A stretch of DNA of 64,000 nucleotides from Candidatus Saccharimonadota bacterium (GTDB taxonomy: Bacteria > Patescibacteriota > Saccharimonadia > Saccharimonadales > Saccharimonadaceae): assembly GCA_009785095.1 (NCBI GenBank), contig WQXA01000001.1, positions 3,244-67,243 of the forward strand, read 5' to 3'. Position numbers and translations under genes: made by a program. Of the stretch, positions 17,615 through 57,235 are shown piece by piece; within the stretch, counting starts at the first letter, position 1; each line of letters begins with the position of its first letter. The notes under the pieces are model-generated. The model saw only the letters and a list, made by a program, of their open reading frames with translations. It had not been told where the DNA came from and searched no databases.

Positions 17615-17645
17615 ATTGTAACACAATGGGGGGGGGTGCTGTCAA
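17615..17645 (-). promoter_or_regulatory. sigma70-like promoter TTGACA-19 nt-TACAAT with a C9 tract inside the spacer
   Basis: On the minus strand: TTGACA (17645..17640), a 19-nt spacer containing CCCCCCCCC, then TACAAT (17620..17615). Confidence 0.5.
17628..17636. repeat. homopolymer tract G9 (C9 on the gene strand)
   Basis: Counted directly. Confidence 0.95.
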
Positions 17646-17682
17646 GGGCTTTTTCAACAAAAATTCAATGGAAATATAGAAA

Positions 17683-17725
17683 CTAGCACTCGGGGCTTGC
17701 GAGTGCCAGGATTTTGCGCTACAAT
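17683..17725 (+). promoter_or_regulatory. CIRCE-like HrcA operator overlapping the groESL promoter
   Basis: CTAGCACTC-N9-GAGTGCCAG (consensus TTAGCACTC-N9-GAGTGCTAA). TTGCGA (17697..17702), 17-nt spacer, TACAAT (17720..17725). Confidence 0.75.
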
Positions 17726-17758
17726 GGAGAGGAAAGAAATTAACTCGAGGAGGAGTTC

Positions 17759-18028
17759 ATGACCAAAGTTCCAATCAAACCCCTGGGCGAGCGCATCGTG
17801 GCCACGCGCGAGGAAGCGGCGACTAAAACTGCGGCCGGCCTTTATCTGCCGGACAACGCCAAGGAAAAATCACAAATTGCCAAGGCCGTGGCCGTTGGCG
17901 CGGCCGTTCGCGAAGTCAAAATCGGCGATCGGATTATCGTGCGCGAGTATTCCACCACCGAAGTCAAAATCGACGGCGTGGAATATCTGATCGTCAAAGA
18001 AGAGGACGTCCTGGCGACGGTGGCCTAG
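17759..18028 (+). CDS. groES: co-chaperonin GroES
   Basis: IKPLGERIV...AGLYLPD...GDRIIVREYS blocks. RBS GAGGAGGAG. Confidence 0.95.
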   Translation: MTKVPIKPLGERIVATREEAATKTAAGLYLPDNAKEKSQIAKAVAVGAAVREVKIGDRIIVREYSTTEVKIDGVEYLIVKEEDVLATVA

Positions 18029-18053
18029 AAGAAATTAATGAAAGGAGAAAACA

Positions 18054-19676
18054 ATGGCAAAGAAAGTATTTTATGACGACGAGGCGCGCGAGAAAATTTT
18101 AGCGGGCGCGCGAAAATTGGCCGACGCGGTCAAAGTCACCATGGGCCCAAAAGGCCGCAACGTGGTCATCGGCAAAAGCTACGGCGGGCCGAGCGTGACG
18201 CACGACGGCGTGACGGTGGCCGAGGCGATCGATTTGCCTGAGACAGAGGAAACTTTGGGCGAGAAAATCGGCGCTGATCTAATCAAGCAGGCGGCCAAGA
18301 AGATGAACAAAGATGCCGGCGACGGCACCACAACGGTGACGATTCTGACTTATGAAATTTTAAAAGAAGCCAACCGATTGATCGCGGCCGGACACAACCC
18401 GATGGCGCTGCGAAAAGGTGTCGAAAAAGCCGGCGCAGAGGTTTTGGCTGGCCTAGCCAAGTTGTCCGAACCGGTTGATGGCAAGAAAGACCGAGTGGCT
18501 GAGGTGGCGACGATCTCGGCCGGTGATAGCGAAATCGGGCAATTGATCGCTGACGTTATCGCTAAAATTGGCCGCGACGGCGTGGTTAGTGTCGAAGAAG
18601 GCCAGAGCCTGACAATGGAGGCCGAGGTGGTCGAAGGATTCACTTTTGACCGTGGCTACGTTTCGGCGTATATGGCGACCGACACTACCCGCATGGAGGC
18701 GATTTACGAGCGGCCCGCCATCTTGATTACCGATAAAAAAATCAGTTCAGTCCAGGAATTTTTGCCGATTCTCGAAAAGTTAGCGGCGGCGGGTAAGAAA
18801 GACGTCGTTTTGATTGCCGACGAGGTCGAGGGCGAAGCACTGGGCGTGCTAATCCTTAATCGTTTGAAAGGTGTCTTTAACACTGTGGCGGTCAAAGCAC
18901 CGAGTTTCGGCGATCGCAGAAAAGACGTGCTCGAGGATATCGCGATTTTGACCGGCGCGACCGTCATCACCGAGGATCAGGGACTGTCCTTTGAAAACGT
19001 TGGCCTCGAGGTGCTCGGTTCGGCGCGCAAAGTTATCGTCGGCAAAGACAACACCACGATCATTGAAGGCGCGGGCGACAAACGAAACATGGCGGCGCGG
19101 ATCAAGCAGATCTTAGCGCAAGCGGACGTGGCTAGTTCCGAATACGACAAAGAACAGCTCGAAAAGCGTGCGGCATCGCTCAACGGCAAAGTCGCTGTTA
19201 TCAAAGTCGGCGGCGCGACCGAAACCGAAATCAATGAGAAGAAATATCGTGTTGATGACGCTGTGGCTGCGACCAAAGCGGCTCTCGAGGAAGGCATCGT
19301 CCCGGGCGGCGGTGTGTCGTTGATCGCGTTGAGCAAAGAAATCACCGGCCAAAGCGCCGGCGCGGAAATTTTGCGCGTGGCCTTGGCGCAGCCGTTCAAA
19401 CAGTTGATGAACAACGCCGGACTCAACACCGAGGCGTTATTCGCCGAAGTCAGCACCGCCAAAATCGGCTATGGCGTCGACGTCATGAAGCCGGAAAAAG
19501 GCGTCATCGACCTCAAAGCCGCCGGCGTAGTCGACCCGGCACGCGTGCTGCGCGAGGAGATCCAAAACTCCGTTAGCATTTCCGCCACAGCCATGACCAT
19601 GGGCGCATTGGTGGCCGACATTCCCGAACCAAAAACCACCGCTCCCGATATGGGTGGTGGTATGGGGATGATGTAA
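18054..19676 (+). CDS. groEL: chaperonin GroEL
   Basis: DGTTTVTIL, EEGIVPGGG, C-terminal GGGMGMM. Confidence 0.97.
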   Translation: MAKKVFYDDEAREKILAGARKLADAVKVTMGPKGRNVVIGKSYGGPSVTHDGVTVAEAIDLPETEETLGEKIGADLIKQAAKKMNKDAGDGTTTVTILTYEILKEANRLIAAGHNPMALRKGVEKAGAEVLAGLAKLSEPVDGKKDRVAEVATISAGDSEIGQLIADVIAKIGRDGVVSVEEGQSLTMEAEVVEGFTFDRGYVSAYMATDTTRMEAIYERPAILITDKKISSVQEFLPILEKLAAAGKKDVVLIADEVEGEALGVLILNRLKGVFNTVAVKAPSFGDRRKDVLEDIAILTGATVITEDQGLSFENVGLEVLGSARKVIVGKDNTTIIEGAGDKRNMAARIKQILAQADVASSEYDKEQLEKRAASLNGKVAVIKVGGATETEINEKKYRVDDAVAATKAALEEGIVPGGGVSLIALSKEITGQSAGAEILRVALAQPFKQLMNNAGLNTEALFAEVSTAKIGYGVDVMKPEKGVIDLKAAGVVDPARVLREEIQNSVSISATAMTMGALVADIPEPKTTAPDMGGGMGMM

Positions 19677-19723
19677 AAATTTGCCTCCGGAGCAATTTAC
19701 CTTATACATATGACAAAACCTTG

Positions 19724-19752
19724 TTGACTTAGACACAATAGTATGATAGACT
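19724..19752 (+). promoter_or_regulatory. promoter TTGACT-17-TAGACT, 10 nt upstream of ATG 19763 (leaderless-type)
   Basis: Hexamers and spacing read directly. No Shine-Dalgarno sequence in the 10-nt gap. Confidence 0.5.
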
Positions 19753-19762
19753 ATCCACCATT

Positions 19763-20449
19763 ATGACAAGACCAGAGACAACAGGTGGGAATGATTTAGT
19801 GAAGATGGTAACGGGCGATTTATCGGCTCGGGGGGGGGTAAGCGAAGAAACGCTTGCTGACGTTGAGATTTTCTTGCGACGGCTCGAGACGGAACACGGA
19901 GGGAGCTTGGTATGTGGCAATCCAACCGAGTTCTCTAGTGCGGTGGCACGCGCGCTAGTCCGACACGAGGTAGCAAACAATGGTCGTCATACAAAAGTAA
20001 CTTGGGAAGAAGATCACGATCGTGGTGCGGCTGTTGTCAATGCACTGATGGGTAGCAAAATTGTTGCGGAGTACTTCACTCTCGACAAGAAAAAAGGAGG
20101 TGGCAGACCGATTGGGTTGACACTTCCCGCAGAATCGGCTAAAGAAGAAGATAGTGGCTTGAGCGAAATAGAGACAGAAGTCGCAGCTCTCGAGCAAGAA
20201 GTACTTACTGCAGAGGAAGAACTGGGCGAGCTTGCAGAGGCGCTAGGAATGGACGATATAACAATGGATCCTTTTGATATCCCCGAAAATACTGACCCAT
20301 GGACAAAGAGAGGACTACTGAAAGCCAGACTTGCCAAAATCCAAGAAAACTTATATCCTGCTAGAGAACTTGCTAAGGAATTGGGCATCGACACCCTTGA
20401 GTCGGAAGCGGTCAATACAGGAGCAGGTGATTATGTGGAAGTGGTGTAA
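19763..20449 (+). CDS. hypothetical acidic protein (orphan), G9 tract at codons 23-25
   Basis: Intact 228-aa ORF. The tract is read as RGG. No recognisable domain. Confidence 0.5.
   Translation: MTRPETTGGNDLVKMVTGDLSARGGVSEETLADVEIFLRRLETEHGGSLVCGNPTEFSSAVARALVRHEVANNGRHTKVTWEEDHDRGAAVVNALMGSKIVAEYFTLDKKKGGGRPIGLTLPAESAKEEDSGLSEIETEVAALEQEVLTAEEELGELAEALGMDDITMDPFDIPENTDPWTKRGLLKARLAKIQENLYPARELAKELGIDTLESEAVNTGAGDYVEVV
19830..19838. repeat. homopolymer tract G9
   Basis: Counted directly. Confidence 0.95.
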
Positions 20450-20524
20450 GGCCATTGTGTCTGGAGAAGAAGTAGAGTAGAATGGGCAAAATAAGTTAAG
20501 TTATGGGTGGGAGATAGGAAATAT

Positions 20525-20878
20525 ATGAAAGGAACTGGTAATGTACCCCTCAGGGATTTGACTGATGAAGTTAGGGGGGGGGGCAAAGCTCGTGGGAATG
20601 ATACAGCACAATCTCCAATGGCACAATCAGCTTGTCTATTACTTTCATTTGAAACAGAACGAGTAGGTCGTCCAATGACTTTTGCGGATCGATTTGCATA
20701 TGATGCAAATCTTGTCAGAGTTGGCAAGAGATTGTTTCCAAAGGAGATGACTTGGCTGGAGAATACTGGCTTTCCTACCTGCGAAGGCTGCTCTGCTGAC
20801 TGTGGAACTGAAACACCAGATTGGCTCAAGTCTGTAGTCAAAACATTAAACCGAGAAGTTTATCCCCGTAGCAACTAG
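20525..20878 (+). CDS. hypothetical Cys-containing small protein (orphan), G10 tract near the 5' end
   Basis: ATG 20525 follows GGGTGGGAGATAGG. Upstream promoter TTGTGT (20455..20460), 17-nt spacer, TAGAAT (20478..20483). The tract is read as RGGG. Confidence 0.5.
   Translation: MKGTGNVPLRDLTDEVRGGGKARGNDTAQSPMAQSACLLLSFETERVGRPMTFADRFAYDANLVRVGKRLFPKEMTWLENTGFPTCEGCSADCGTETPDWLKSVVKTLNREVYPRSN
20574..20583. repeat. homopolymer tract G10
   Basis: Counted directly. Confidence 0.95.
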
Positions 20879-20910
20879 CTTTTCACGCTATTCTGCTCAA
20901 AGAAATCAAC
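20875..20910 (-). pseudogene. duplicated 3'-end fragment of the 21613..22137 gene (reads VDFFEQNSVKS*)
   Basis: 20893..20910 (CTGCTCAAAGAAATCAAC) matches 21628..21645 (CTGCCCAAAGAAATCAAC) at 17/18 positions. Both encode VDFF(G/E)Q about 10 codons before a stop on the minus strand. Confidence 0.55.
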
Positions 20911-20943
20911 CCACTTTCGTTCACTTGATTTCCTGGCGATAAT

Positions 20944-21594
20944 ATGTTATGGTTTTCAACAATGAGAAGGCGATCATTCAGTACCAGTCAGACTCTAACT
21001 CTAACAACGGGTCGTCCAAATTTGCCACTGGTTTCGTATTCCCCTAATAGCGAACAGCCAGAATGTCCGTATGACGCGAGTAGACGTGCTTCTATCGCAC
21101 GGCGTTTGTTCGATCTGGCTGGGGGGGGGATCGATGAAGGGCTCGAGAGAGAGCTGGCTCATTGCTCGAAAGACTGCCTGAAGATAGGTTTCAACAAAGG
21201 TGGCAGTCCTAATTTTTGCATAGTGAGATGCCAACTTGGTCTACGGCCAGAAGGAAACCCAACCGATAACTTAGGCAGCGAATGCCGTCAAGCTTGGAAA
21301 GGCTCTGACTCGTTGTCACCGCTTGCCTACGACCCACTAAATGGCCAGCGAAGCTCTTCATTTACTCACGACTTAATGTTAGTTGAGCGTGAGCTTAGCA
21401 GCGTTGCGCCAGAGACTCTGACGCGGCCTGATGGTGATTGTGTCTCAACAGATATGCTAAACACACGACCATTGAGTCTAGAAGATGCAGAGCGCGTCGA
21501 TCAGCTTGTAAAAAACTGTGGTGGATGCCTAAATGTCACCTGTGCACTATACAAATCGATCGCTAAGTTGAAAAGTCGGCGTGAATCCGAGTAA
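20944..21594 (+). CDS. hypothetical Cys-rich protein (orphan), G9 tract at codons 59-61
   Basis: Intact 216-aa ORF. The tract is read as AGGG. Lies between the two 18-nt direct repeats. Confidence 0.5.
   Translation: MLWFSTMRRRSFSTSQTLTLTTGRPNLPLVSYSPNSEQPECPYDASRRASIARRLFDLAGGGIDEGLERELAHCSKDCLKIGFNKGGSPNFCIVRCQLGLRPEGNPTDNLGSECRQAWKGSDSLSPLAYDPLNGQRSSSFTHDLMLVERELSSVAPETLTRPDGDCVSTDMLNTRPLSLEDAERVDQLVKNCGGCLNVTCALYKSIAKLKSRRESE
21121..21129. repeat. homopolymer tract G9
   Basis: Counted directly. Confidence 0.95.
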
Positions 21595-21612
21595 TCAAAC
21601 TAGAAATTGAGC

Positions 21613-22137
21613 CTACCCGGCATGCTGCTGCCCAAAGAAATCAACTTCTTTGATGACGTCCAATAATGCCTGGGCGCGGCGGTTTTCGTCCGGTATGGTG
21701 CGGGCGGTTTCGTAGGCGACCGGTATGAGCGAGGTGTCATCGGTCGAGCGGATAATTAGCAAAATGGTGTTGAATCTCTCCTCGGGCGGCAGAGTCAATC
21801 TGTCGACTAGCGGTCGGAGTTCCGCCAGGGCGCTGCGCTTGATATTATCGAGTTCGGGCGGTATGGTAGGCGCCGCGGCCGGTGCCGGCGCAGCGGGCAC
21901 GGCCGGATCGGGCGTCGCAACCATCGCGGCCGGATCAGGCGCTACAACCGGCGCAACCGGATCAGGCGAAACAGGCGCCACGGACGGATCAGGCGAAACA
22001 GGCGCCATCGCCTGAGCGGCAGGCGGTTCGCCAACCGGTGCGGCAACCGGCGCCGGCTGGCCTTGGATGCCGGCTATCATCTGGTTTAGCTCGTCGTCAT
22101 TAACCTTGCTCTTGCTGGTGTCTTCGTCCATTCCCAC
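21613..22137 (-). CDS. hypothetical protein with a Pro/Ala-rich repeat linker (APVSPDP x2) and a conserved-looking C-terminal domain
   Basis: ORF with host-like codon usage. No assignable family. Confidence 0.55.
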   Translation of the reverse strand: MGMDEDTSKSKVNDDELNQMIAGIQGQPAPVAAPVGEPPAAQAMAPVSPDPSVAPVSPDPVAPVVAPDPAAMVATPDPAVPAAPAPAAAPTIPPELDNIKRSALAELRPLVDRLTLPPEERFNTILLIIRSTDDTSLIPVAYETARTIPDENRRAQALLDVIKEVDFFGQQHAG

Positions 22138-22182
22138 CCTTTCTTTTCCAAGATTATATCATAAGCAATTTAGTTTTGTAAA

Positions 22183-23351: not shown

Positions 23352-24299
23352 ATGAAGAATTTTATTGAATCAATAGGAAATGTCACTAGAAAACCAGTGG
23401 CTGTTGCTACCGTAGCAGCTGCAGCTTTCGGACTAGTTGGTGGATGTACTGTTTCTGGGTCAAACCGGGGGGGGGATGTTTCGCCTCAGGTTGCTGCGTC
23501 TCAGGATGATATGCCTGAGGATATTATGGGAGCAAAAACGTTTGCAGCACCACAAGGAGAAAGACCTAAAGACATAGAGCCCGCAGAGCCCACACTTGGA
23601 GCTTCGAATACTCCAGAAGCGACAAATAAAAGAGAAGGAATTACTCCTAGCCCCTCTAAACAACAGCCAACTGGAACTCCTAATGAAGAAGCTCCGACCA
23701 GTGCCCCAGCCACTATAGAAGCAAAAGATGAGGCAGAACCACCAGCTGTTGAAAGCCCTAAACCCACTGAGCAAATCGAAGCTCTTGACGACGTGGGCAT
23801 TATAGAAACCATAGCTGAAGAACTTAAACTATATTTGGGGGCGGGCAGCTATCTGACTGATAATAAGCTCGACCTAAGAGATCGCAGCTTGAGAAATAAA
23901 TTAAAAAAAGAGTTATCAGCACTAGAGCAGAGATTTGGTAGCGAGCTGGCGGAAGAAGTTTTAAAAAGCGCGCTTGCCCGAGCGCTCACTGGTATAGAAG
24001 ATCCATCACCGGCGGCTAAAAATAGAGACTACGCCATGCGTTTCATAAAAGGTCGCATTGGAAATCTTACTAATAGGACGCTAAATGGTGATGAGAGCGC
24101 TGAAAGGGAACTGGTTAAAATTGAAGCTGAGGTTCAGGAAAAATTACAGGCGGCCATCGATGATGGTAACAAGGGCGGTAATCCCGGCAGTTCGACAGAA
24201 AATGTTAGTTACAGAAGAACAAAATTAAGCGGAGAAACGAGAGCTTTACTGCGGTTTCTCTACGGCGATGACGCAAGAGTGGACATAGTGGAAGTATGA
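23352..24299 (+). CDS. putative lipoprotein (orphan), G9 tract 6 codons after the lipobox Cys
   Basis: Signal peptide ending LVGGC, Pro/Glu/Thr-rich linker, helical C-terminal part. The tract is read as RGG. Confidence 0.6.
   Translation: MKNFIESIGNVTRKPVAVATVAAAAFGLVGGCTVSGSNRGGDVSPQVAASQDDMPEDIMGAKTFAAPQGERPKDIEPAEPTLGASNTPEATNKREGITPSPSKQQPTGTPNEEAPTSAPATIEAKDEAEPPAVESPKPTEQIEALDDVGIIETIAEELKLYLGAGSYLTDNKLDLRDRSLRNKLKKELSALEQRFGSELAEEVLKSALARALTGIEDPSPAAKNRDYAMRFIKGRIGNLTNRTLNGDESAERELVKIEAEVQEKLQAAIDDGNKGGNPGSSTENVSYRRTKLSGETRALLRFLYGDDARVDIVEV
23467..23475. repeat. homopolymer tract G9
   Basis: Counted directly. Confidence 0.95.
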
Positions 24300-24439: not shown

Positions 24440-24742
24440 CTAAGCGGCATCGGGTCGGTCTTCATCAAGCCCCTCGCACAAGGGATTTGTCCCTGTCGAG
24501 CCTAAATCAATACCTACCTTTGGTAACATTCTGCTAACCGGCACACCTCTTCGGGCAGCGCGCTTATAGACTCTCGCTAGTCTATTAATAATTGCTTGGT
24601 GCTGCTGTTCTGGAGATGGCGCATTTAACAACCGTACAACTAGCTTACCCATTCTGTCTATTATTCGAGCCACGATGCCAGGACGCCCTTCTTGTATCAG
24701 GTTAGGTTGACGGGGGGGGGGTATATCAAGACTCTCACTCAT
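24440..24742 (-). CDS. hypothetical basic 100-aa protein (orphan), C10 tract at codons 8-10
   Basis: ATG 24742 lies 10 nt downstream of the -10 box. The tract is read as PPP. The upstream part of ORF 24440..24766 overlaps the promoter. Confidence 0.5.
   Translation of the reverse strand: MSESLDIPPPRQPNLIQEGRPGIVARIIDRMGKLVVRLLNAPSPEQQHQAIINRLARVYKRAARRGVPVSRMLPKVGIDLGSTGTNPLCEGLDEDRPDAA
24712..24721. repeat. homopolymer tract G10 (C10 on the gene strand)
   Basis: Counted directly. Confidence 0.95.
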
Positions 24743-24752
24743 ATTATATCTC

Positions 24753-24781
24753 ATTGTACAATTCAAATTCGTTTAGGTCAA
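24753..24781 (-). promoter_or_regulatory. promoter TTGACC-17-TACAAT (leaderless-type)
   Basis: Minus strand: TTGACC 24781..24776 and TACAAT 24758..24753. Confidence 0.55.
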
Positions 24782-27863: not shown

Positions 27864-30800
27864 ATGGTAGCAATTTCGCGTGCAATGAAAGAGTCGACAG
27901 ACAAGGGTTTTTCTGATAGCGGCAAAAACCGTCGCCGTCTAATGCTCATTACGCGCACCCTTGCCGCTCTTGGCGGTGGTTTCGTTATTATTTTCGGCCT
28001 GCTCTATCTTTTTCACTCAAAAGACACCACCCTGACTATGCCGGCATCCTTGCTAGATCGCCAAACTCTCGATGTCAAGCTCAACGTCTATTCTGCCGAC
28101 GGGGCTACCGATTTACTTTATTCACAAGATCTCACTGCGAGTGTGGTAAATGATGGAAGCCAAATAAAAGTAAATTGGCGAATACCAGCGGAATATACCA
28201 AGCGCGACACTCATGTCGAAGTGGTTAGCCGAGAACTTTTAGCAAAAGAGGAATCATATGACTCTTCCTGTGCATATTTCGTTCCTACGCGTTCCAGCGG
28301 CTTCATTTCTGATCTCGCCGGCTGGAACAGTTTGGACGAAAACCAACGCATTGGCTGTCTTGCGCCTAACGATCAATACACTAGTTTTCTCCAGGCCTAC
28401 AACGACATCAGCAAAACCCTTTACTCGGGTCTTTATTTTGACGGCGGCCAAGTCATCAACGCGCCAAACACTTCTGGCGACATTAATTTAACTGACATTA
28501 ATAATCTCATTAACCAAGCCATCAATGAGAAAGCCCTTGTTTTTGCTGGCCCCCAAGGCAGCCCTGGGCTGCGCGGCTCTCAAGGAACGCCAGGATCGCA
28601 AGGTGAGAAAGGTGAAAAGGGCAGTCCCGGTGACACTACCGTCGTCATAGATCCCGGCCTAGTTGGGGAGAAAGGCGCCAAAGGAGATACGGGCACCAAA
28701 GGTGACAAGGGCGACAAAGGCGATCCCGGCAGCGACGGCGTCATGGGTGTTACCGGCGGCGGGCTTATTCTCTATAATCATATACTTTCCCTCAAGTCAT
28801 GCCTGGATGGTGAGGTTCTTAAATATCAGGATGGCGTGTGGGATTGTGCTCCGGACATGGTAGGCACCAGCGGTATTAGTCTGACTTGTACCGAAGGAGA
28901 CATACTCAAATCTGTCGGTGGCGTGTGGTCTTGTGCTGCCGAGGGCACCGGTACGAGCACGGACACTACTTACCTTGCCGGCAATGGTTTAATCCTGGAC
29001 TCCGATACCAACACGTTTTCTATCAACGCCCTGGCCTGCCAGACCGATGAATATCTGACCTGGAACGGCACTCAGTTTTCTTGCGAGGCGGACGACGATA
29101 CCAATATTGACACCGACACCACATATGGCGCTAAACAATACGGTGGCCTCGTCCTGGACAGCAATAATGATTTTGCTCTCATGCTCTGCTCTGACGCTCA
29201 GGTGCTAAAATACTCCAGCGCCGCTTATAGCGGTCAAGGTGGGTGGATTTGCGCCGAAGACGCCGACACGACTTATGATCTGTCTGGCTATCTGCAAATC
29301 GCCAATCTCCAGGACGCCATCGATGCTCTCACGCCAGGCTATTACAACAAGGATCAAATTGACAGTATGTTCGATGATTTCACCAGCACGCTGCCTCTGA
29401 GTGGGCTAAAAGTTCCTCAGGTGGTAGCCCTGGAGTCGGAGCTCTCAGACGCCTCCTGCACCGAGGCCGGTGATTATTGGTTTGTGCAGGACATGGACGT
29501 TACAAAGCCAGACCACACTGGTCGCGCTTGGTGCTATGAAGACGGTGGTGGCACGCTTCACCTCTACAAAGTTTACGATGATTATTCCCACCCCGATAAC
29601 GTCAGTATTCTCTTTAATTCTGACGGCCAGCTCACAGTTTCCGAGAGTTGGTTAGATAGCTATCTTTCAAGTAAAGATTACGCTACGGAAGACTACGTAG
29701 ACAATGCTATAGCAGGTCTAGATTTTACGCCTTACGTCACTTGGACTGACGTGCCGCAGTGCTCGGCCGGATCATTCCTGACTAGCACGGCCAGCGGCGT
29801 GCTGTCTTGCGCCGCCGCCAGCACCACCGACACCACCTATACGGCCGGTGAAGGTATCACCATTGACCCAACCAGGGGTAATGCCATCAGCATCAACGCC
29901 CCGACTTGTACGGTTGGGCAATACCTCACCTGGAACGGCGCGTCGTTTTTGTGTCAGGACGATGCCGACACTGTTTTCTCTCTGCCTGATGGTACTGATG
30001 ATGGCGACATACTCATTTGGGATACTGCCACTAATTCTTGGGTGATCGGACAGCAAACCGGATCAGGTATTGATACGACCTACGCCGCCAAGGCTGGTGG
30101 TGGATTAAAACTAGAGGGCTCTGCTTCGCCCTATGAATTCTCGCTGATTGATTGTTCGGCTGGGCAGCTGCTGAAGTTCGTCTATAATCCTTCTACATTG
30201 GAAAACGAATGGCAATGCGCTGTGGATTTGCAAGGTGCCGACCAGGATCCTTATTTGGCCGGTACGGGCATCGTAATAGATTCTAGTAACTTCATCGGTA
30301 TCGACGCTACCGAGTGTCAAACTGGCGAATTCCTGACATGGACAGCCTCCGGCTTTGCCTGTCTGGATGCCAGCTCGAGCTTCACCGACAATGACGAGCA
30401 AGTTCTGACTTTTGACAACACCAACTGCAAACTCAGCATTAGCAACGGTAATACAATTTATTTGAATTGTGGCACGGAGTCGTGCCCGCCGGTCGGGGCG
30501 CTGCGCATCAACACTAATTTCTTTGATCCGATTGTCACCGATGTTAGTGGCGCCGTTTGGTACCGCATGGATGGTCAGACTATTTCGCCCAGCGACCAAG
30601 CTACTTATGCAGCTGGTTTTGCCGGTATTATCAATCCCGATGGCACCTTGCCGGTTCAGCAAAACTCTGACAGCCTTTACTTCTACCTCAAGGTTTTTGG
30701 CAATTGTGCGCCGATGGTCAATACCGACACGGTTTACGAGGAGGGCAAAGGTATCAGCTTTACCGACCTGGACGGCAATGGCATTCCGGAAATTAATCTA

Positions 30801-35336: not shown

Positions 35337-38300
35337 TTATCGACGACGAGCCGTAAGCTTATCGTGATACTCTCGCGCATACCTAATCAGTTGCGGCGGA
35401 AGACCCACTTTCTCGGCAAAAGAAAGGGGATTTGATATTACTTTTTCACCATCAACAATAGTCCGCTCAATCTGATCGCCAGATTCGGTGAGGACAATAC
35501 CTTGCACGCCCAAATCTGAGGCTTCTTCTGCGAAATCCAAAAAACCGTCATGATGGGTTGTCACCACTAAACGATGGCCGCGCGCGGCATTAGCCGCTAA
35601 TGTTGCGGCTGCGAAAGCGGCCTGGTACTTCGGAGATGTTGAACTGCCAATTTCGTCGGCAAAAGTGATGGCTGTTCTTGCTCCGGAAATTATTCGATGG
35701 TGGTCAGCCCAAACATCAACCTCGTGTTGACCGGCACTAGCCTCAACGTCCATTTCTTGGGCGATCCTACTGATGTATGAAATCCGCTCAAAATAAGGTA
35801 GGTTTCCATAGCTGGCCGGTACGACCCCCATTTTCATAGCGAGTAAAATGGCGTTGGTGATGTGCCTCGTGCCATAGGTTTTGCCTGCTGAGTGCTCGCC
35901 GCTGAGGGTAACGCCAGCCTGATCGCTCCGGATGCTATAATCAAAAGGCTGGTGCCTACTGCCGTGCCCGATGTCTTTCACTGAGTCGAGCCGTACTTCG
36001 CCGGTATCATTGAATTTGGCCAGCGCGTACTCGCCGGACGAGACACGTTTAGCCAAATCACCAAGGTATAGCAATCTATCGATAGCCTCGGCTATCTCTC
36101 TCGGTTCTTCTTGCCAAAAAGGATTTTCCGGACGTTGTTTTTTAGTCAACGGTGAATAATCAGAATGCCAGGCATCTGTGCTATTCGAATCGTCGACCGT
36201 TTCACTAGGAGTCGCCGTGCGATTATTGACGAGGTTTTGTAAATGCAAGATACCTTGACGCATATGAACGGAGTCTATCTGATCGCGATGCTGTTCTAGG
36301 CGTTCGAGCGCATCCATTATAGTAGGCTCCGACTGCATGAGTTCAATCAATTTTCCAATACCCGAACCCATTTTAATCGATGTAGAGATCAGTTCCGAGT
36401 TCGGGTTCTCCTGCCGCTCGCTTTCTCCAGTAACGTAGGCATGTTGATTACTGTCAAAAGTTGTTTCTGGTTGTGCTAGAACTTCAAGGATCGGCTTTAG
36501 GTCATCTCTAAGCCAAAACTTTTCAAGGCTACTGCCTTTAAAATCAATTTTACGTATTGCTGTCGAAGCTAATCTCGCTGCCTGTCTCAATCTCTCCTGG
36601 ATCTTATCTGTGTGCTGTTTGTTGATACCCTTAAGAAAGTAATATTGGCGACGGTTCTGACTGTTGTCGTAAAGTTGCAATTCTTGCTCATGAGCTGATC
36701 GCAATTTGTCAATTTGAGAGCTGAGAAATGATAGGGAATCACGTAATTTAGTAAAGTCTCCGAAACCAAGTAGCTCCAACAGCTCTACATAGGCTAAGGC
36801 CTTCGCTGCGAGACTAATATCACGCACTATTGGATAGTATGATGCATCTCCATCGAGATTAAAATGACCATTTTTCGAAAGCGAGGGTGTTACCTCGTCC
36901 GTTATTTTATGACCAAAACCATGCTGAAAGTTAAACGCCCAGATAGGATTAAGCTGTTGTAGCAGAACCGATGGATCTTTATTTCCAACTATCTTCAAGA
37001 AAGTCTCAAGGTTGACACCGAGCAAATTGAGATCATCAACCAAATCATCCAGTTCTCCATAACCGGCCAGCACCTCGATCGTCCGCCGCCGTTCGATTAA
37101 TTCCCTAAACTCAACTGGGTCGCTATTACACAGCAACTGTCGCTGCTCCGAACTCATGCCACTCAGTAGATCAGAATCCTTGCTCAATGGTACATAGGCG
37201 GGGCTGTGTGGTGTCTCGGGGAACATATATGCTAGACCACCGTCGCGCTCCATCATCTCTTCGCGTTTCGTTTGGTCGTAACCACTTTCCGGAACAGCCG
37301 GATAGTCCGGCGTGTAGCTAATTTTGAGGCTGCCATCCAAATAGTCTTCCATTAGACCAGCATAGTCTTCACCGAGTCCTCTTGAGCGCACTACATCTAT
37401 AAAACCAGAATCAGCCACGCCTTCTACCATCTGATATGGGTTGTCAGGGTCGTTTGTAAAGCTATAAAGTCCTGCGTCTTTCAATTTTTTTAGCATGCTC
37501 GCAACATGCTCGTTATGGGTTGCTAAACACACTAATCCGCCGTTTTCCTGCACATAGCGAGCGAACGCCAAATTCAAGGCTGCTTGCCAAAGCGGCGACG
37601 TCGTGGACATCGCTTCATCGAGATAAAAAACAGGTTTCTTGCCTATGTGACGGAGCGCTTCTTTCCATCTACGAAACTCATTAACGAGTGCGCCATGGTT
37701 ACCTATGCCGCGAGAATTGCACCGGCCAAGCATAGTGAAGGACGTATGCAACTCAAATTCGTTTGGTTGTTCGGCCGGAACCCAACCAAGTGCTTGTCGT
37801 GCTATCCGCGCACCGAAATCACGCTCCATGGCGAATGTTTTACCCGATCCATTTGCAGCAACTAGGACAACTATTGAGTGCTCATTAAACAATCCTTTGC
37901 CAAGGGTTTGCTCACCTTTGGGCTTCTGAAATTTCCAAGCGCCGGAGATCTCCGAATCAGTATCGCCCGGGATTGCTGGATGCCATTCGTCCTCAGCTAT
38001 CATTGAGGCTAACGTTGTGACTACTACCAAATCTACCATTCGAGCGAGAACATTATCTGCCCAATTACTAGGATTGTGGTTAAAATGTCCGAAAGTATCT
38101 CCACCAGAGTAGTATCGATTATCAGGGCGACCATATCCAGGAAGCCACGATAGAAATCTATCGTAAGGGTAAGAACCAAATTGACATCTTGCTTGCTCGT
38201 CACTCATCCAGGTTCGAACTTGATCAACTGAATCTCGATTTAACAAATTTCTTATACAGTATTCTAGATACTTCATACTTACAGCACTTGGCTCAAAAGT

Positions 38301-38843
38301 TTCATCAATAGTGGTAAGCAGACTAGCTATTCGTCCCAGACTTCCAACGTTTGTTGCGATGTCATCAAGAACAATATTCATGGCCTCGTTCGTTCGGTGA
38401 TGCTCATACCCTAGGTTTGGTACATAAATTTCTGACTCTGTCTCTAAACCCATCACATACATTTCATATAATGAGCTGTTATTCCAATTAGAATCATCCC
38501 CTGAAGGCCAAAATGCAGAACCTAAAGCATCCGCCAGTGCCATTGCTCCCACTAGAGCCTTTCTTAACTCTGGTAGCTGTTCTGATTCGGCGAGCATGCG
38601 AAGTATCTCCCTACGCTGCTCGAGCACAGTTGTATCAGAAATCGGTCTTGATATAATGTCATCTGCTATGTAAGATAATCGACTCTCCGTAAATATAGAT
38701 ACGTTACCTTCCTCCTCGGATGGTTCAAACGGTCGATAATCAGATTCATGTTGACCAGTGTAAAATCTAGCTGGCAGGGCTTCAAGTTGATTCGGGGGGG
38801 GGGGCGGCGGTAGCAATAGCAATGTTCGTGATATTGGTCGCAT
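35337..38843 (-). CDS. MutS-family protein with two tandem core-plus-ATPase (domain III/V-like) modules; C11 tract at codons 12-15
   Basis: Module 1: AANGSGKT (~37836..37859), VFYLDEAMSTTSP, LATH. Module 2: GEHSAGKT (~35880..35903), FADEIGSSTSP, VTTHH. Each is preceded by a helical segment with a MutS-core-like ...I..RR.I..L motif. I saw no mismatch-binding domain I and no Smr domain. Confidence 0.6.
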   Translation of the reverse strand: MRPISRTLLLLPPPPPPNQLEALPARFYTGQHESDYRPFEPSEEEGNVSIFTESRLSYIADDIISRPISDTTVLEQRREILRMLAESEQLPELRKALVGAMALADALGSAFWPSGDDSNWNNSSLYEMYVMGLETESEIYVPNLGYEHHRTNEAMNIVLDDIATNVGSLGRIASLLTTIDETFEPSAVSMKYLEYCIRNLLNRDSVDQVRTWMSDEQARCQFGSYPYDRFLSWLPGYGRPDNRYYSGGDTFGHFNHNPSNWADNVLARMVDLVVVTTLASMIAEDEWHPAIPGDTDSEISGAWKFQKPKGEQTLGKGLFNEHSIVVLVAANGSGKTFAMERDFGARIARQALGWVPAEQPNEFELHTSFTMLGRCNSRGIGNHGALVNEFRRWKEALRHIGKKPVFYLDEAMSTTSPLWQAALNLAFARYVQENGGLVCLATHNEHVASMLKKLKDAGLYSFTNDPDNPYQMVEGVADSGFIDVVRSRGLGEDYAGLMEDYLDGSLKISYTPDYPAVPESGYDQTKREEMMERDGGLAYMFPETPHSPAYVPLSKDSDLLSGMSSEQRQLLCNSDPVEFRELIERRRTIEVLAGYGELDDLVDDLNLLGVNLETFLKIVGNKDPSVLLQQLNPIWAFNFQHGFGHKITDEVTPSLSKNGHFNLDGDASYYPIVRDISLAAKALAYVELLELLGFGDFTKLRDSLSFLSSQIDKLRSAHEQELQLYDNSQNRRQYYFLKGINKQHTDKIQERLRQAARLASTAIRKIDFKGSSLEKFWLRDDLKPILEVLAQPETTFDSNQHAYVTGESERQENPNSELISTSIKMGSGIGKLIELMQSEPTIMDALERLEQHRDQIDSVHMRQGILHLQNLVNNRTATPSETVDDSNSTDAWHSDYSPLTKKQRPENPFWQEEPREIAEAIDRLLYLGDLAKRVSSGEYALAKFNDTGEVRLDSVKDIGHGSRHQPFDYSIRSDQAGVTLSGEHSAGKTYGTRHITNAILLAMKMGVVPASYGNLPYFERISYISRIAQEMDVEASAGQHEVDVWADHHRIISGARTAITFADEIGSSTSPKYQAAFAAATLAANAARGHRLVVTTHHDGFLDFAEEASDLGVQGIVLTESGDQIERTIVDGEKVISNPLSFAEKVGLPPQLIRYAREYHDKLTARRR
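38794..38804. repeat. homopolymer tract G11 (C11 on the gene strand)
   Basis: Counted directly. Read as PPPP within LLLPPPPPPPNQ. Confidence 0.95.
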
Positions 38844-39021
38844 TCTCTATATTGATAAGTGTTCAGAAATGAACCAGCAAACGTAAAGTTGGGTTTATCA
38901 ATATCTTGCCTTGAGGCTGTCGGTATAGTAAAATCTGGGGCTCTACGCATAGCAAAAACCTAAAAATCACACTTTAGTTTGTGCTATGTTACATTATTTT
39001 GTACTATCTGTCAAATATCAT

Positions 39022-43464: not shown

Positions 43465-43540
43465 CGGGGCTTGGCGCAGTTGGTAGCGCGCCGCGCTGGG
43501 GGTGCGGAGGTCGCCCGTTCGAGTCGGGTAGCCCCGACCA
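43465..43540 (+). tRNA. tRNA-Pro (anticodon GGG), C1:G72, G37, CCA encoded
   Basis: Folded by hand: acceptor CGGGGCT/AGCCCCG, D-arm GCGC-AGTTGGTA-GCGC, anticodon stem CCGCG/TGCGG with loop CTGGGGG, T-arm GCCCG-TTCGAGT-CGGGT. Confidence 0.9.
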
Positions 43541-43576: not shown

Positions 43577-43605
43577 TTGACTTTAGCGAGATTGAAAAAT
43601 ATAAT
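43577..43605 (+). promoter_or_regulatory. consensus promoter TTGACT-17-TATAAT, 8 nt upstream of ATG 43614
   Basis: Hexamers and spacing read directly. Confidence 0.6.
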
Positions 43606-43613
43606 TGAAGGAA

Positions 43614-43924
43614 ATGAGACAGGAAAGTTACCCCCCCCCTTCCGGCCTGACCTCGACAGGATCGCGGAACTCGGAAGAGGGTTTCATGGCGGGGATGCGT
43701 CTCTTGTCCCTATCGCGTCTTCCGGATTCCCGAACCTTTCCCCGTACCCGCATGAGCTGAGCGACGAAAAGGTTTATGAAGCGGTTCTAGGCGCTGAAGG
43801 AATTGGGATTACGATGACACCGAAGGGCGTAGATAAGTATGTGAAAACGGTTACGCCTCCAGATCCGAGGGATTTCGAACCCATAGGTCGCATGGCCAGA
43901 TTTCTTCTTGGGCGGTTCATTTAA
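43614..43924 (+). CDS. hypothetical small protein (orphan); apparently out of phase at the C9 tract if ATG 43614 is the start
   Basis: ATG 43614 (frame 0) enters the C9 tract after 5 codons. The 100-codon open frame that ends at 43924 is in another frame and would be joined with C10 or C7. The only in-frame start is TTG 43577, which is itself the -35 hexamer. Confidence 0.4.
43631..43639. repeat. homopolymer tract C9
   Basis: Counted directly. Confidence 0.95.
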
Positions 43925-49650: not shown

Positions 49651-50624
49651 ATGAATACATCACCAAAGGATCCTACACAAAAACCACTAAAAGAGCACGA
49701 GCGGTTGTTAGCAGTTCCAGGAGGAACAAAGAGACTGACAAGTGGCTTAATTGTGCCACGGGGGGGGGGGCAGCGGCGCTAGAAGCTTTAGCTGTCGACA
49801 GACCCGATGAACCGACTTCCGAACAAGCCAATGAAGCTTGGCAAACTTGGCGCGAAAGATCGGAATATACCGCATTCAAAGACATTTTTGACGCCCTAGA
49901 AGGGCAACTTGAAAATTATGAAGTAGCCGGAAAATTGTTCAAACTCGATCTCTCTGTCTATGACGAAACTGCTGCCCGCACCGCTCTCAACGATGCCCTG
50001 AATCATATCACTATTACGCAGCTTAGATCTATGCGTGAAGCTGGTATGGATAGCGAACACCCATACGCTCTCATTGCCAATTTTGTGCCGACCAAGAAAT
50101 TTAGCCATTCTGAGCTAGAGACAGCGAATGCTAAGTTAAATCCTGATGATCACTTTGAAGCTCTCGACTATCGTGATCAGTATACTGAGGATCAACTAAA
50201 TGGTGATTACAGAACCAAATCAGGCCAAGAAGGCTTTGTGGTTGAGTTCATCCCAGTTGAGCCCAATATTAATGCCGCTAAACAGAAGGATCAGATCGAT
50301 CAACTTGATAGACTTAATAGTATTGAGGGCGCTAACTGGAGTGTGCCTGGCGACGCGTCTAGCATGATCTATCAACAGGTTCTGGCGGATAAAGGCTTGC
50401 TGACTGGCGATGACAATCCTAGTAAAACGTCTATTGTCAGATTAGATTTAGAGTCGAAGGCAGGGGATCCTGACAGTTACAGAAACCTAGCGTGGGATGA
50501 GCTAGTAGATATGTTTCGTCCGATTACGTACCGCGTTGACTACGGCAGGGCGTTCTTGGTCGGGGCGGGCGTCGACGTCGACAAGGACGTTTCGCGTGTC
50601 GCGATAAAGCCAAAATTTGATTAA
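49651..50624 (+). pseudogene. hypothetical protein (orphan) frameshifted at a G11 tract (phase-OFF or sequencing error)
   Basis: ATG 49651 reads MNTSPKDP...IVPRGGGQRR*, stopping 3 codons after the tract. The frame that ends at 50624 is open from 49647 through the tract, but has no ATG or GTG before TTG 49935. G9 or G12 fuses the two frames into a ~324-aa ORF. Confidence 0.7.
49760..49770. repeat. homopolymer tract G11
   Basis: Counted directly. Confidence 0.95.
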
Positions 50625-52424: not shown

Positions 52425-52751
52425 ATGAGCGAGATTCTAAAGAAATATCACGAACCTGGCGCCGCTGGCTGGACGCCGGACTCAAAATTAACAGACGAAA
52501 TCAACGAAATTTTAGCCGGGCGACGCCGTTTTGTGGCCGACGTGAGTGGCGAATTCGCAACGCGTATGGCGTTTGCCCAGGAGCCAACTGAGGCAGAAGC
52601 ACCATTGAATGTTCTTCTTGATGCTATTACTCCGGTGGCTGTGTTGCCCATAGCATCCGCAAATCCAGGAATAGCGGCCATAATGGCATTGGATACAATA
52701 GAAAATCCGCCACACGACGAAAACAGGGACGATTGGGCATTGGCTGCCTAA
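52425..52751 (+). CDS. hypothetical small protein
   Basis: ORF with its own promoter and RBS. No recognisable motif. Confidence 0.45.
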   Translation: MSEILKKYHEPGAAGWTPDSKLTDEINEILAGRRRFVADVSGEFATRMAFAQEPTEAEAPLNVLLDAITPVAVLPIASANPGIAAIMALDTIENPPHDENRDDWALAA

Positions 52752-52892
52752 TCCCCTTGCAGGGACGGTTCCTGCAAGACGCAGTTACATTCGACACAGT
52801 CTTTGTTGTATAGACGGCTTCGCCGCATACAACATTTCGTCGCCTCGGAAAAGAAAATGAGTTTTCTTTTCACTCGCCTCCTCGTGTTGTAA

Positions 52893-52941
52893 AAACTACA
52901 TATAGCGTTCTTAAACCAACGTGATATACTAGATGTAGTGT
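52893..52941 (+). promoter_or_regulatory. pair of putative NrdR boxes upstream of nrdJ
   Basis: AAACTACATATAGCGT (52893..52908) and ATACTAGATGTAGTGT (52926..52941). Each matches the remembered consensus acaCwAtATaTwGtgt at about 13/16 positions. The starts are 33 bp apart. Box 2 overlaps a TATACT -10-like hexamer. Confidence 0.45.
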
Positions 52942-52986
52942 TTGGGCAGCACTGAAATAAAGAAAAGAATTTAAGGGGAGGTAATC

Positions 52987-55875: not shown

Positions 55876-55880
55876 AGTTT

Positions 55881-56313
55881 TGTCATCCTGAACCTAGCGC
55901 TCTGTCATCCTGAACTTGTTTCAGGATCCAAAATATTCTAAAATCAGAACGTGAAAAGCTACTATGTCTATATTCTGACCAATAGAACAAATCAGATCTT
56001 TTATATTGGCATAACGAACGATTTATGGCGACGCATCTATGAGCACAAAAACCACTTGGTTACTGGTTTCACCGACAAATATAACTTGGAGAAGTTGGTC
56101 TATTATGAGGAAACCAGCGATGTAAATTCTGCGATTCAGCGCGAGAAACAATTAAAGAATTGGCATCGACAATGGAAAATCAATCTAATTGAGCAAGCTA
56201 ACCCCAACTACAAAGATCTCGCGGAAGAGCTTTGATCATTTAAGATCCTGAAACAAGTTCAGGATGACAGGTAATTGAGATTAAGATGACAGATCATTGA
56301 TCTTGGGATGACA
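55881..56313. mobile_element. GIY-YIG nuclease cassette bounded by nested inverted repeats
   Basis: Perfect 26-bp inverted repeat: TGTCATCCTGAACTTGTTTCAGGATC (55903..55928) versus 56244..56269. Extra half-sites TGTCATCCTGAAC (55881..55893) and GATGACA (56285..56291 and 56307..56313). Each repeat also folds as an 8-bp hairpin. Confidence 0.7.
55951..56235 (+). CDS. GIY-YIG nuclease family protein (UPF0213-like, 94 aa)
   Basis: YYVYILTN...FYIGITNDLWRRIYEHK GIY-YIG motif. GTG start. Confidence 0.85.
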   Translation: MKSYYVYILTNRTNQIFYIGITNDLWRRIYEHKNHLVTGFTDKYNLEKLVYYEETSDVNSAIQREKQLKNWHRQWKINLIEQANPNYKDLAEEL

Positions 56314-56342
56314 AACGCTATCTTTCTTGTTAAAATAATAGT

Positions 56343-56879
56343 ATGAAAAAAGCCAACCTGCTCTGGATTGACCTCGAGATGACGGGGCTTGATCCGGTGA
56401 AAGATCGAATTATTGAGGTCGGTGTCATCGCGACCGATTGGCGGTTGAATGAGGTGGCGCGTTACACGGCCGCCATCAAGGTAAATCCGAGGCTGGCCAA
56501 ACGTCGTATGACCGGTGATTTTTGGGAGAAAAACATGGCGGTGCGTGAGGCGCTGTTCGAGGCCAGCCAAACCAGCGGGCGAGTGGTGCGAACGGTTGAA
56601 AACGAGTTGATTGACTTTCTAAAGAAAAACTTTGACATGAAGCAACCGATCTATTTGGCCGGCAATTCGGTTTGGAACGATCGGCAATTCATCGAGCGAC
56701 AATGGTCGCGGCTAAACAATCTACTGCATTACCGCATGCTCGACGTAACGGCGTGGAAATTGGTGTTCGAAAATCATTTCAGAACCAAAATCAACAAGCC
56801 CGAAATCCACCGCGCTTTGGACGACATCGAGGGCTCGATCGCCGAATTGAAACTTTATATGAATAGAATTAAATTATAG
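56343..56879 (+). CDS. orn: oligoribonuclease
   Basis: LLWIDLEMTGLDP..DRIIEV, YRMLDVT, HRALDDI. Collinear with E. coli Orn. Confidence 0.9.
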   Translation: MKKANLLWIDLEMTGLDPVKDRIIEVGVIATDWRLNEVARYTAAIKVNPRLAKRRMTGDFWEKNMAVREALFEASQTSGRVVRTVENELIDFLKKNFDMKQPIYLAGNSVWNDRQFIERQWSRLNNLLHYRMLDVTAWKLVFENHFRTKINKPEIHRALDDIEGSIAELKLYMNRIKL

Positions 56880-56889
56880 GAGGAAAATC

Positions 56890-57235
56890 ATGAAAATTAT
56901 CAAACGAGGCGACATAAAACTCGAATCGGCTCACGGCGGCTCTGGCTCGCGCAAAGTCTTGATGCAGAACGTTAAAACTAGCGAAATCGAAGCCATGAGG
57001 GATGGTTTTTTACCGGGGGGGGGGGCAAATGTTTGACTGGCATCTGCACGACGGACTGACGGAAATTATGTACGTCTTGGCTGGCTCCGGCAAAGTGCAT
57101 GACGAGGACGGCCAGTATGATTACGCGTCGGGCGATCTCTTTACTTTTCCGGCGAACGAAAAACACAAGATCGTGAACACCGGCGATTCAGAAAGCCACA
57201 TGATTTTTGTTAGATTCAAAGAAAAGGCGATATGA
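56890..57235 (+). pseudogene. cupin-domain protein frameshifted at a G11 tract (phase-OFF or sequencing error)
   Basis: RBS AGGAGGA then ATG 56890 reads MKIIKRGD...DGFLPGGGANV*. The second frame (GGGQMFDWHLHDGLTEIMYVLAGSG...) carries the cupin core. G10 gives one 114-aa cupin ORF. Confidence 0.8.
57015..57025. repeat. homopolymer tract G11
   Basis: Counted directly. Confidence 0.95.

Follow-up and report, generated by a model that had tools for sequence, protein, structure and literature searches.

G/C homopolymer tracts as candidate contingency loci in lineage-specific orphan genes of a Saccharibacteria genome from a termite hindgut

A 64,000-nt stretch of the genome of an uncultured Candidatus Saccharimonadota bacterium (GenBank assembly GCA_009785095.1, contig WQXA01000001.1; hereafter the window) contained ten uninterrupted G/C homopolymers of 9-11 nt, numbered T1 to T10 in the order of their position (Table 1). 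Read on the forward strand, nine of them were runs of G and one was a run of C. These tracts are probably hypermutable repeats through which genes are turned on and off in a stochastic and heritable way, that is, contingency loci, an interpretation that is well supported if unproven. The switches appeared to be attached to orphan and accessory genes near their 5' ends and, in one case, to a promoter.

The window, with a GC content of 50.6%, lies within a contig of 78 kb that belongs to a metagenome-assembled genome (MAG; locus tags FWD20_) available from NCBI and JGI/IMG. The GroEL protein that it encodes belonged to Saccharibacteria (TM7, Patescibacteria), with 76% amino acid (aa) identity to the nearest species representative. 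The source metagenome, as identified through a neighbouring contig, is Emb289P3 (IMG 3300010049). It came from Embiratermes neotenicus, a humus-feeding termite, and represents the P3 compartment of the hindgut (Table S1 in Hervé et al. 2020, PMC7024585), and it was sequenced on the Illumina HiSeq 2000/2500 with four-colour chemistry (PMC7024585). Our list of 51 curated genes for the window combined ENA gene calls that were mapped over with our own open reading frame (ORF) calls. We also used about 24 kb of further sequence from the same genome (the flanks), including L086, L087 and L170, where L170 is the JGI contig Ga0123356_10001583; window coordinates are equal to L086 coordinates minus 9812.

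The spectrum of run lengths in the window was bimodal. There were 17 runs of G with a length of 5 and none with lengths of 6-8, whereas lengths of 9, 10 and 11 were represented by 4, 2 and 3 runs, respectively. For C, there were eight runs of length 5, one of length 6 and one of length 9. Geometric extrapolation from runs of 1-5 nt gave 0.04 expected runs of at least 9 nt versus the ten observed, while about 5.8 runs of 6-8 nt were expected versus one observed. Similarly, dinucleotide-preserving shuffles produced a mean of 0.2 9-mer matches versus 18 that were observed in the ten loci. A first-pass annotation of the window had listed ten tracts and had estimated that fewer than one was expected by chance. 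All ten were recovered exactly, both in coordinates and in length, and their number was far beyond chance. Over-representation of a repeat at certain sites together with its avoidance elsewhere is a property of contingency loci, and the lack of runs of 6-8 nt in the rest of the window is consistent with purifying selection that keeps mutable runs out of always-on genes.

The position of the tracts was far from random as well. Nine of them were located at codons 6-54 of ORFs and the remaining one (T1) was found in the spacer between the TTGACA and TACAAT hexamers of a promoter, which was the arrangement that the first-pass annotation had described. The zone of the first 60 codons comprised 14.3% of the window, so that the binomial probability of finding nine of ten tracts there was 2e-7. 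Moreover, all 12 scored coding tracts (nine from the window and three from the flanks) were within the first 36% of their ORFs (Kolmogorov-Smirnov test versus a uniform distribution, P = 9e-6). As a control, we considered twelve A/T runs of 7 nt, and these were spread evenly along genes, including core genes such as groEL. Contingency loci typically have their repeat towards the 5' end of an ORF or in a promoter.

The effect of a slip was evaluated in silico. For all nine coding tracts, every change of ±1 nt cut the product to 11-75 aa and a change of ±3 nt restored it. Thus, as in known contingency loci, a change in length was predicted to toggle between full and truncated products or, at T1, to alter the promoter geometry. 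The tracts are a feature of the DNA rather than of the protein. The GGG triplet accounted for 11% of the Gly codons and CCC for 16% of the Pro codons. All 27 Gly3 or Pro3 tripeptides in the genes without tracts, two of which were in GroEL, were encoded by interrupted codons where the longest run did not exceed 5 nt.

Differences between assemblies provided a view of tract variation. The window was compared with the consensus sequences of the ENA assembly ERZ27264051 (MEGAHIT-style k141) and of Logan assemblies, including SRR5215205; the Logan contigs stopped short of T7 and T10. Along 63,082 nt, the ENA assembly, an independent assembly of the same strain, had five single-nucleotide polymorphisms (SNPs) and three indel events relative to the window. 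All three indels were in tracts, namely T7 (from 11 to 10 nt), T9 (from 11 to 9 nt) and T10 (from 11 to 10 nt). Since the tracts sum to 98 nt, the chance of all three indels falling there was about 4e-9. With the ENA lengths, T9 and T10 became intact and were called in that assembly as 323-aa and 114-aa genes. In Logan SRR5215205, T9 was also G9. The three tracts of 11 nt all varied, versus none of the nine shorter ones for which lengths could be compared. Slipped-strand mispairing predicts that variation is limited to the longest tracts, and homopolymer sequencing error would give the same trend. Polymorphism in the tracts was therefore above the background of indels, as it is in contingency loci, at the level of assembly consensus and possibly within one sample. 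Together, the over-representation, the 5' bias, the codon make-up, the truncation by slips, the tract in a promoter spacer and the restriction of indels to tracts supported the slipped-strand phase variation that had been proposed at first pass.

It could be argued that the poly-G stretches, or their differences in length, were technical artefacts of sequencing or assembly. Illumina sequencing with two-colour chemistry is known to produce spurious poly-G, and calls of homopolymer length are error-prone. In addition, two of the five SNPs were within 16 nt of T10, which may be a phasing error after the homopolymer. However, the data were produced with four-colour HiSeq chemistry, so the two-colour dark-G artefact was excluded. 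The tracts were internal to contigs of 25-78 kb, had unique flanks, and were recovered at the same sites in the JGI, ENA and Logan assemblies, and five or six of them preserved the frame of a long ORF. Furthermore, comparable metagenomes provided about 160 loci of other Saccharibacteria, and none of these had such a tract. An artefact would account at most for calls of 11 versus 9 or 10 nt, not for the existence or the placement of the tracts, and we consider this explanation hardly credible.

The tracts were restricted to this lineage in our comparison set, which consisted of loci centred on groEL and taken from about 160 other Saccharibacteria (species representatives, 1.42 Mb; metagenome contigs, 0.90 Mb). 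No G/C run of at least 9 nt was found in this set, and the sole run of 8 nt was on a contig with 65% GC. The nearest relative that we found (L089, 93% aa identity in GroEL) had no run of 6 nt or longer. In L089, groEL, a 162-aa gene, DAGK and FtsX/ABC genes followed one another directly, separated by 4-13 nt. The window had 1.9 kb with T2-T4 and 1.7 kb with T5-T6 inserted between these same genes, and both insertions were absent in L089.

The genes with tracts were unusual in other respects. Eight of the ten window genes with the lowest GC content at third codon positions (GC3) were tract genes (mean GC3 0.44 versus 0.60, Mann-Whitney P = 3e-4), and the codon adaptation of tract genes was below that of core genes. 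The cupin gene of T10 had a core-like GC3. Searches for homologues of the T9, T5 and T8 proteins returned none but the proteins themselves, among 5.8 billion clusters or, by exhaustive HMMER, among 1.84 billion representatives; the former number applies to T9 and the latter to T5. Most tract genes had no match to a Pfam or NCBIfam domain, and none had a significant PADLOC match that would indicate a defence function. Consistent with the first-pass annotation, gene calls and domain searches placed no tract in a recognisable housekeeping gene. Most tract proteins lacked signal peptides and transmembrane segments; the exceptions were the lipoprotein-like product of T5 and one flank gene with a transmembrane segment. 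Orphans with low GC3 but without tracts were also observed (528, 225 and 108 aa; GC3 0.36-0.47; no Pfam match; window 59407-61688 and 52425-52751). Thus, switching was not universal among atypical accessory genes.

These properties raise the question of whether the tracts might be real and mutable and yet non-adaptive. According to this view, a mutational process of the lineage expands the runs, which persist only in dispensable, decaying or junk orphan ORFs (ORFans) where a frameshift has no cost, and the broken genes would be ordinary pseudogenes in the making. The low GC3, the reduced codon adaptation and the absence of detectable homologues would agree with it, as would the lack of an assigned function for most tract genes and the fact that three or four tracts were out of frame in the window. 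On the other hand, a non-adaptive process predicts a uniform position along the ORF, in conflict with the 5' clustering described above, and it does not account for the location of T1 exactly between near-consensus -35 and -10 hexamers. Except at the tract, the ORFs were still long and uninterrupted, and in 10 out of 10 tract genes the annotated frame was the best of six, which confirmed their coding nature. Every tract was pure and there were no decayed copies. The broken genes of T9 and T10 were intact in the ENA assembly, and tracts were present in a gene of a conserved family (T7) and in the cupin gene with core-like GC3 as well. We therefore regard the non-adaptive scenario as unlikely, and contingency switching as the preferred reading.

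Table 1. Tracts of the window and its flanks, with the genes discussed together with T1 and T7. Positions are those of the window; flank tracts are listed last.
Feature	Position	Strand	Description
T1	17628..17636	-	C9 (minus strand) within the spacer of a promoter; equal length in ENA and two Logan assemblies
Gene behind T1 promoter	16752..17567	-	271-aa orphan, divergent from groES/groEL; GC3 0.38; single-member protein cluster
T2	19830..19838	+	G9, codon 23 of 228-aa ORFan 19763-20449; in frame; gene absent from L089
T3	20574..20583	+	G10, codon 17 of 117-aa ORFan 20525-20878; in frame; gene absent from L089
T4	21121..21129	+	G9, codon 54 of 210-aa Cys-rich ORFan 20962-21594; in frame; gene absent from L089
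T5	23467..23475	+	G9, codon 39 of 315-aa putative lipoprotein 23352-24299; in frame; gene absent from L089
T6	24712..24721	-	C10 on the coding strand, codon 8 of 100-aa ORFan 24440-24742; in frame; gene absent from L089
T7	38794..38804	-	C11 on the coding strand, large double-ATPase protein; codon 14 of the apparent ORF
T7 gene	35337..38950	-	Authentic ATG at 38950; two P-loop ATPase modules, the C-terminal one resembling MutS domain V
T8	43631..43639	+	C9, codon 6 of ~103-aa ORFan 43614-43924; 91 nt 3' of tRNA-Pro(GGG)
T9	49760..49770	+	G11, codon 37 of 323-aa ORFan 49651-50624; OFF in the window
T10	57015..57025	+	G11, codon 42 of 114-aa cupin 56890-57235; OFF in the window
Flank tract (L086)			C9, codon ~19 of 278-aa orphan
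Flank tract (L086)			C10, no called gene there; 136-nt direct repeat on both sides
Flank tract (L087)			C9, codon 5 of 845-aa orphan, L087:18425-20962
Flank tract			G9, codon ~86 of 483-aa orphan
Flank tract (L170)			G9, codon ~14 of 269-aa orphan adjoining type IV secretion system genes

The gene of T7 was the most complex case, and its product was the only protein in the window with a MutS domain. The C-terminal part of its product (about 190 aa) matched Pfam MutS_V with E = 2.6e-10 and MutS2 in the PDB with E = 0.0018, and a second P-loop module was found at residues 330-335. The NCBIfam models gave 30.3 bits for mutS1 (cut-off 641.7) and 41.4 bits for mutS2 (cut-off 400), so that the scores ranged from 30 to 44 versus the 400-640 that would be needed. 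A role as a MutS mismatch-repair protein was ruled out, as domains I-IV of MutS were missing and the scores were far below the cut-offs. Thus, the MutS-like label from the first-pass annotation did not hold beyond the resemblance to the ABC-type ATPase of domain V, which the protein shares with MutS and MutS2 at its C-terminus; it differs from them by the absence of domains I-IV, by the extra P-loop module and by its restricted family. Five homologues with 41-58% identity were found, and the family was confined to a few Saccharimonadales proteins.

The homologues of the T7 protein had a common N-terminal motif, P-x-F-T-F-A-G-x-F (PNFTFAGxF). The window encoded this motif upstream of the tract, in a frame different from that of the gene body, and the two parts aligned across the tract only if it was C9 or C12. 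With these lengths, the product would have 1203-1204 aa and the conserved N-terminus. With C8, C11 or C14, a product of 1167-1169 aa would start from a secondary ATG and lack the conserved N-terminus, and with C10 or C13 there would be no long product. The T7 tract is therefore predicted, from these reading frames, to be a three-state switch. Accordingly, the proposal that six tracts were in frame was correct for T2-T6, while T7 was in frame only with the secondary ATG, its conserved N-terminus being in another frame. The homologues had no Pro run at the site of the tract, which indicated that the tract arose in situ in a native Saccharimonadales family.

At T1, the switch would act on transcription. 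A sigma-70-type promoter was located on the minus strand at 17615..17645, with TTGACA at 17645-17640, a 19-nt spacer (gca + C9 + attgtgt) and TACAAT at 17620-17615, and a TGn motif preceded the -10 hexamer. We read this promoter directly from the sequence; an automated scan that was restricted to spacers of 16-18 nt did not list it. A tract of C7 or C8 would produce the optimal spacer of 17-18 nt. The 271-aa gene behind this promoter had no match in Pfam, PADLOC or NCBIfam. Promoter-like sites were also noticed for T2 (in the region 19724-19763) and T6 (24781-24753, in the region 24742-24781). Only about 11 nt separated their ends from the start codons, so the mRNAs of T2 and T6 may be leaderless or near-leaderless.

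Among the remaining coding tracts, T9 and T10 had been described at first pass as breaking their ORFs, and this was the case at G11. Repair of T9 to G9 or G12 yielded an ORF of 323 or 324 aa. Single-sequence AlphaFold2 gave no usable model for the body of the T9 protein (mean predicted local distance difference test score, pLDDT, of 33). Repair of T10 to G10 yielded 114 aa with a Cupin_2 domain (58.7 bits, cut-off 27.2, E = 4.8e-16), so that the cupin mentioned in the first-pass annotation proved genuine. Its sequence contained the G-x5-H-x-H-x3,4-E-x6-G motif of the cupin superfamily (GQMFDWHLHDGLTEIMYVLAG), and the tract immediately preceded the G-x5-H-x-H part. Two SNPs were present 16 and 5 nt upstream of T10, at window positions 56999 and 57010; one was non-synonymous (R to T) and the other was synonymous. 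This pair could be a result of local hypermutation, of recombination or of sequencing error next to the homopolymer. At T5, the tract was positioned just after an LVGGC lipobox.

The state of T8 was ambiguous. With C9, the tract did not fit the frame of the ATG at 43614, for which C10 or C7 would be ON; it did fit that of a TTG further upstream, at 43577. Thus, the claim that T8 probably breaks its ORF was valid for the ATG start and not for the TTG start. The tRNA-Pro gene next to T8 (window 43465-43540) has the anticodon GGG, which reads CCC, and the C9 tract encodes Pro-Pro-Pro. A second tRNA, tRNA-Ser(CGA), was found directly before a tract gene, the 278-aa gene in L086. The adjacency of tRNA and tract genes may be fortuitous, or accessory genes may tend to insert next to tRNA genes.

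Public annotations of several of these genes at NCBI and JGI were shortened. They gave T7 a product of 1086 aa, T9 one of 229 or 197 aa and T10 one of 68 aa, and the product of the 845-aa gene was reduced to 803 aa. Gene callers restarted 3' of the tract, and this produced a systematic annotation artefact that hides switches in MAGs.

The flanks added five tracts of 9-10 nt, four of which were at codons 5-86 of orphan ORFs. In total, 15 tracts were present in about 88 kb of window and flanks, or approximately one per 6 kb. The first-pass annotation had stated that the tract flanks share no sequence, and a comparison of the flanks bore this out: no shared motifs or direct repeats were found around the insertions of tract genes in the window, and the sole similarity (T7 versus T9) was due to the tracts themselves. 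An origin from mobile cassettes was dropped, as the window had no direct repeats or common flanks; a pair of 136-nt repeats in L086 was a single case. This perfect direct repeat (L086 5934-6069 and 6570-6705, spacing 636 nt) enclosed a C10 tract and the second tRNA-Ser(CGA), and the JGI contig terminated within its first copy. The pair may stem from partial duplication in tandem, from integration of a small element or from an error of assembly. The same region just left of the window (L086:4899-7610) contained four tRNA-Ser genes, of which two were diverged Ser(CGA), one was Ser(GCT) and one was Ser(TGA).

Several other features of the locus were observed near the tract genes. In L170, a type IV secretion system (T4SS) cluster at 991-6849 encoded a TraG-like P-loop protein, a TraC-like protein, PrgI and three T4SS pilins. 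An ORF with a weak CdiA_C toxin domain adjoined this cluster, and the 269-aa orphan with a tract was beside that ORF. There might be secreted effectors among the tract genes. Phage-type ORF6N and Bro-N proteins were encoded amid core genes (window 13386-13937 and L087:17483-18319), and the Bro-N gene was directly 5' of the 845-aa tract gene. As for other repeats, TRF found no further high-copy simple repeats in the window, which, along with the unbiased A/T runs of 7 nt, spoke against a second class of switches. Imperfect tandem repeats of 27, 9 and 12 nt were present at 21900-22050 in a conserved 172-aa gene (21613-22131, minus strand), one of the core genes in common with L089. The only match of a giant ORF of 2326 aa (27864-34844) was a weak one to a collagen-like repeat (Pfam E = 2e-4), and its numerous Gly-Gly-Gly motifs were encoded without runs of G. 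A break of the ENA assembly near 28079-28102, inside this ORF, points to repeats within it or to variation between strains.

The following mechanism can be proposed for the tracts. During replication, the nascent and template strands would misalign in a G:C run of 9-11 nt, and bases would be gained or lost. Neither MutS nor MutL was found in Saccharibacteria (Jaffe et al. 2021, PMC8406219). Without them, the loops would escape repair, and this would result in a high rate of slips; contingency loci generally switch at about 1e-5 to 1e-2 per division. In nine genes, the tract is within the first 55 or so codons, so that every third length would give the full protein and the others would stop after 11-75 aa; at T7, the tract would select a full-length, an N-terminally shortened or no product. 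At T1, the tract would set the distance between the -35 and -10 hexamers, and the present 19 nt is supra-optimal. Since each gene has its own tract, a clonal population could yield combinatorial variants in the expression of lineage-specific accessory genes. In Campylobacter, which lacks mismatch repair (MMR), there is an insertion bias at G8 and a deletion bias at G11 and above (PMC8355987), and by analogy the range of 9-11 nt observed here matches this equilibrium between insertions and deletions. We infer that slippage is the cause of the length differences, and that the changes would be reversible, frequent, effective at the level of expression and adaptive.

A number of points weigh against such switching. 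Seven of the ten window tracts, all with at most 10 nt, were identical in all assemblies, and so were two flank tracts. The variation is known from assembly consensus and not from reads, and several of the assemblies may derive from one termite sample, judging by the accession dates and the identical contig ends of two Logan runs. If there was one sample, then the differences would suggest heterogeneity within it that was resolved differently by the assemblers. They could also come in part from the way assemblers handle error-prone homopolymer reads, as error rises with tract length in the same way as slippage does. Neither in the window nor in the ENA assembly, where its length was unchanged, did T8 fit the frame of its ATG, and the full-length frame of T7 was missing in the window (C11) as well as in ENA (C10). 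The absence of MMR is a literature statement on the phylum rather than a result from this genome. Finally, most tract genes were not the usual targets of phase variation (surface proteins, adhesins, transporters, restriction-modification or defence systems), although such targets are typical rather than strictly defining, and with mainly soluble ORFans as targets the selective rationale is conjectural.

The constancy of seven tracts across assemblies and the out-of-frame T8 would also be expected if the DNA tracts were fixed and the OFF alleles were rescued by slippage of RNA polymerase or by ribosomal frameshifting. Homopolymers of at least 9 nt can promote transcriptional slippage, and rescue by slippage on poly-A has been described in reduced endosymbiont genomes. 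However, that kind of rescue is documented mainly for A/T runs and typically extends over many genes, essential ones included, whereas the tracts here were G/C runs in accessory genes only. Differences in DNA length do exist and were confined to the tracts, and the tract in the promoter spacer of T1 would be left unexplained. Slippage at the RNA level can coexist with switching at the DNA level rather than replace it, and may add leakiness. As a full explanation in place of contingency switching, it appears highly improbable to us.

The contingency-locus interpretation has implications beyond this genome. Patescibacteria (the candidate phyla radiation, CPR) represent a large and mostly uncultured part of bacterial diversity, with tiny genomes, few regulators and little-understood adaptation to the host. 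The locus suggests that large-scale mutational switching operates in at least one of their lineages, specifically on orphan genes. A new phylum would thereby join those in which homopolymer contingency loci accompany the loss of mismatch repair. The tracts are a testable handle to prioritise genes without a function that are likely to be relevant to episymbiosis. In addition, frameshifted pseudogenes in such MAGs may be genes in the OFF phase. More tentatively, this may be the densest phasome yet, where about one gene in five or six would be switched and, provided that the density of the sampled sequence is maintained, a genome of about 1 Mb could have more than 100 switches, nearly all on atypical lineage-specific ORFans, as a default way for a genome-reduced episymbiont without MMR to deploy or quarantine genes that were recently acquired or have newly arisen. 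We find this extension possible but doubtful. If true, it would provide huge combinatorial diversity for dealing with the bacterial host, phages and the termite gut.

Our full-text literature searches returned no report that ties Saccharibacteria or Patescibacteria to poly-G tracts, contingency loci or slipped-strand phase variation. The mechanism itself is already known, and what is new is the phylum, the density and the class of targets. A survey by Orsi et al. (2010) described 5'-biased homopolymers in prokaryotes, namely poly(A) and poly(T) of up to 7 nt (PMC2831843). In our case, A/T runs of 7 nt were unbiased and the signal came solely from G/C runs of 9-11 nt.

The T1 tract can be compared with switches located in promoter spacers. 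Such switches are the poly-G tracts of Neisseria porA and opc and of Treponema pallidum tpr genes. A poly-C switch of the same kind is found in the fim promoter of Bordetella pertussis (PMC1891110). T1 is likewise a homopolymer, a C9 run between a consensus -35 and a near-consensus -10 hexamer, where its length sets the spacer. It differs in that low expression is predicted for the 19-nt spacer, although the extended -10 TGn may buffer this effect, and in that the regulated gene is a 271-aa orphan divergent from groESL.

The closest likeness was to the phasomes of Campylobacter jejuni and Helicobacter. In both cases, pure G/C homopolymers of about 8-11 nt are the sole class of simple sequence repeat, most of them lie inside genes close to the 5' end and some between genes, and they turn genes ON and OFF by frameshifts. 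The lengths cluster at 9-10 nt, and the organisms have no functional mismatch repair, which for the present one is known from phylum-level literature. The differences concern the organism, which belongs to Patescibacteria and is an ultra-small episymbiont, and the base composition of its genome, which is about 50% GC versus about 30%, so that the tracts stand out amid avoided runs of 6-8 nt. The targets here were scattered and mostly soluble single ORFans, whereas those of Campylobacter are clusters for capsule, lipooligosaccharide and flagellar glycosylation as well as restriction-modification systems. The C. jejuni genome has about 1.6-1.7 Mb. With 12-31 phase-variable genes per C. jejuni genome (PMC8355987), the density there is about one per 55-140 kb, versus about one per 6 kb in the genome described here.

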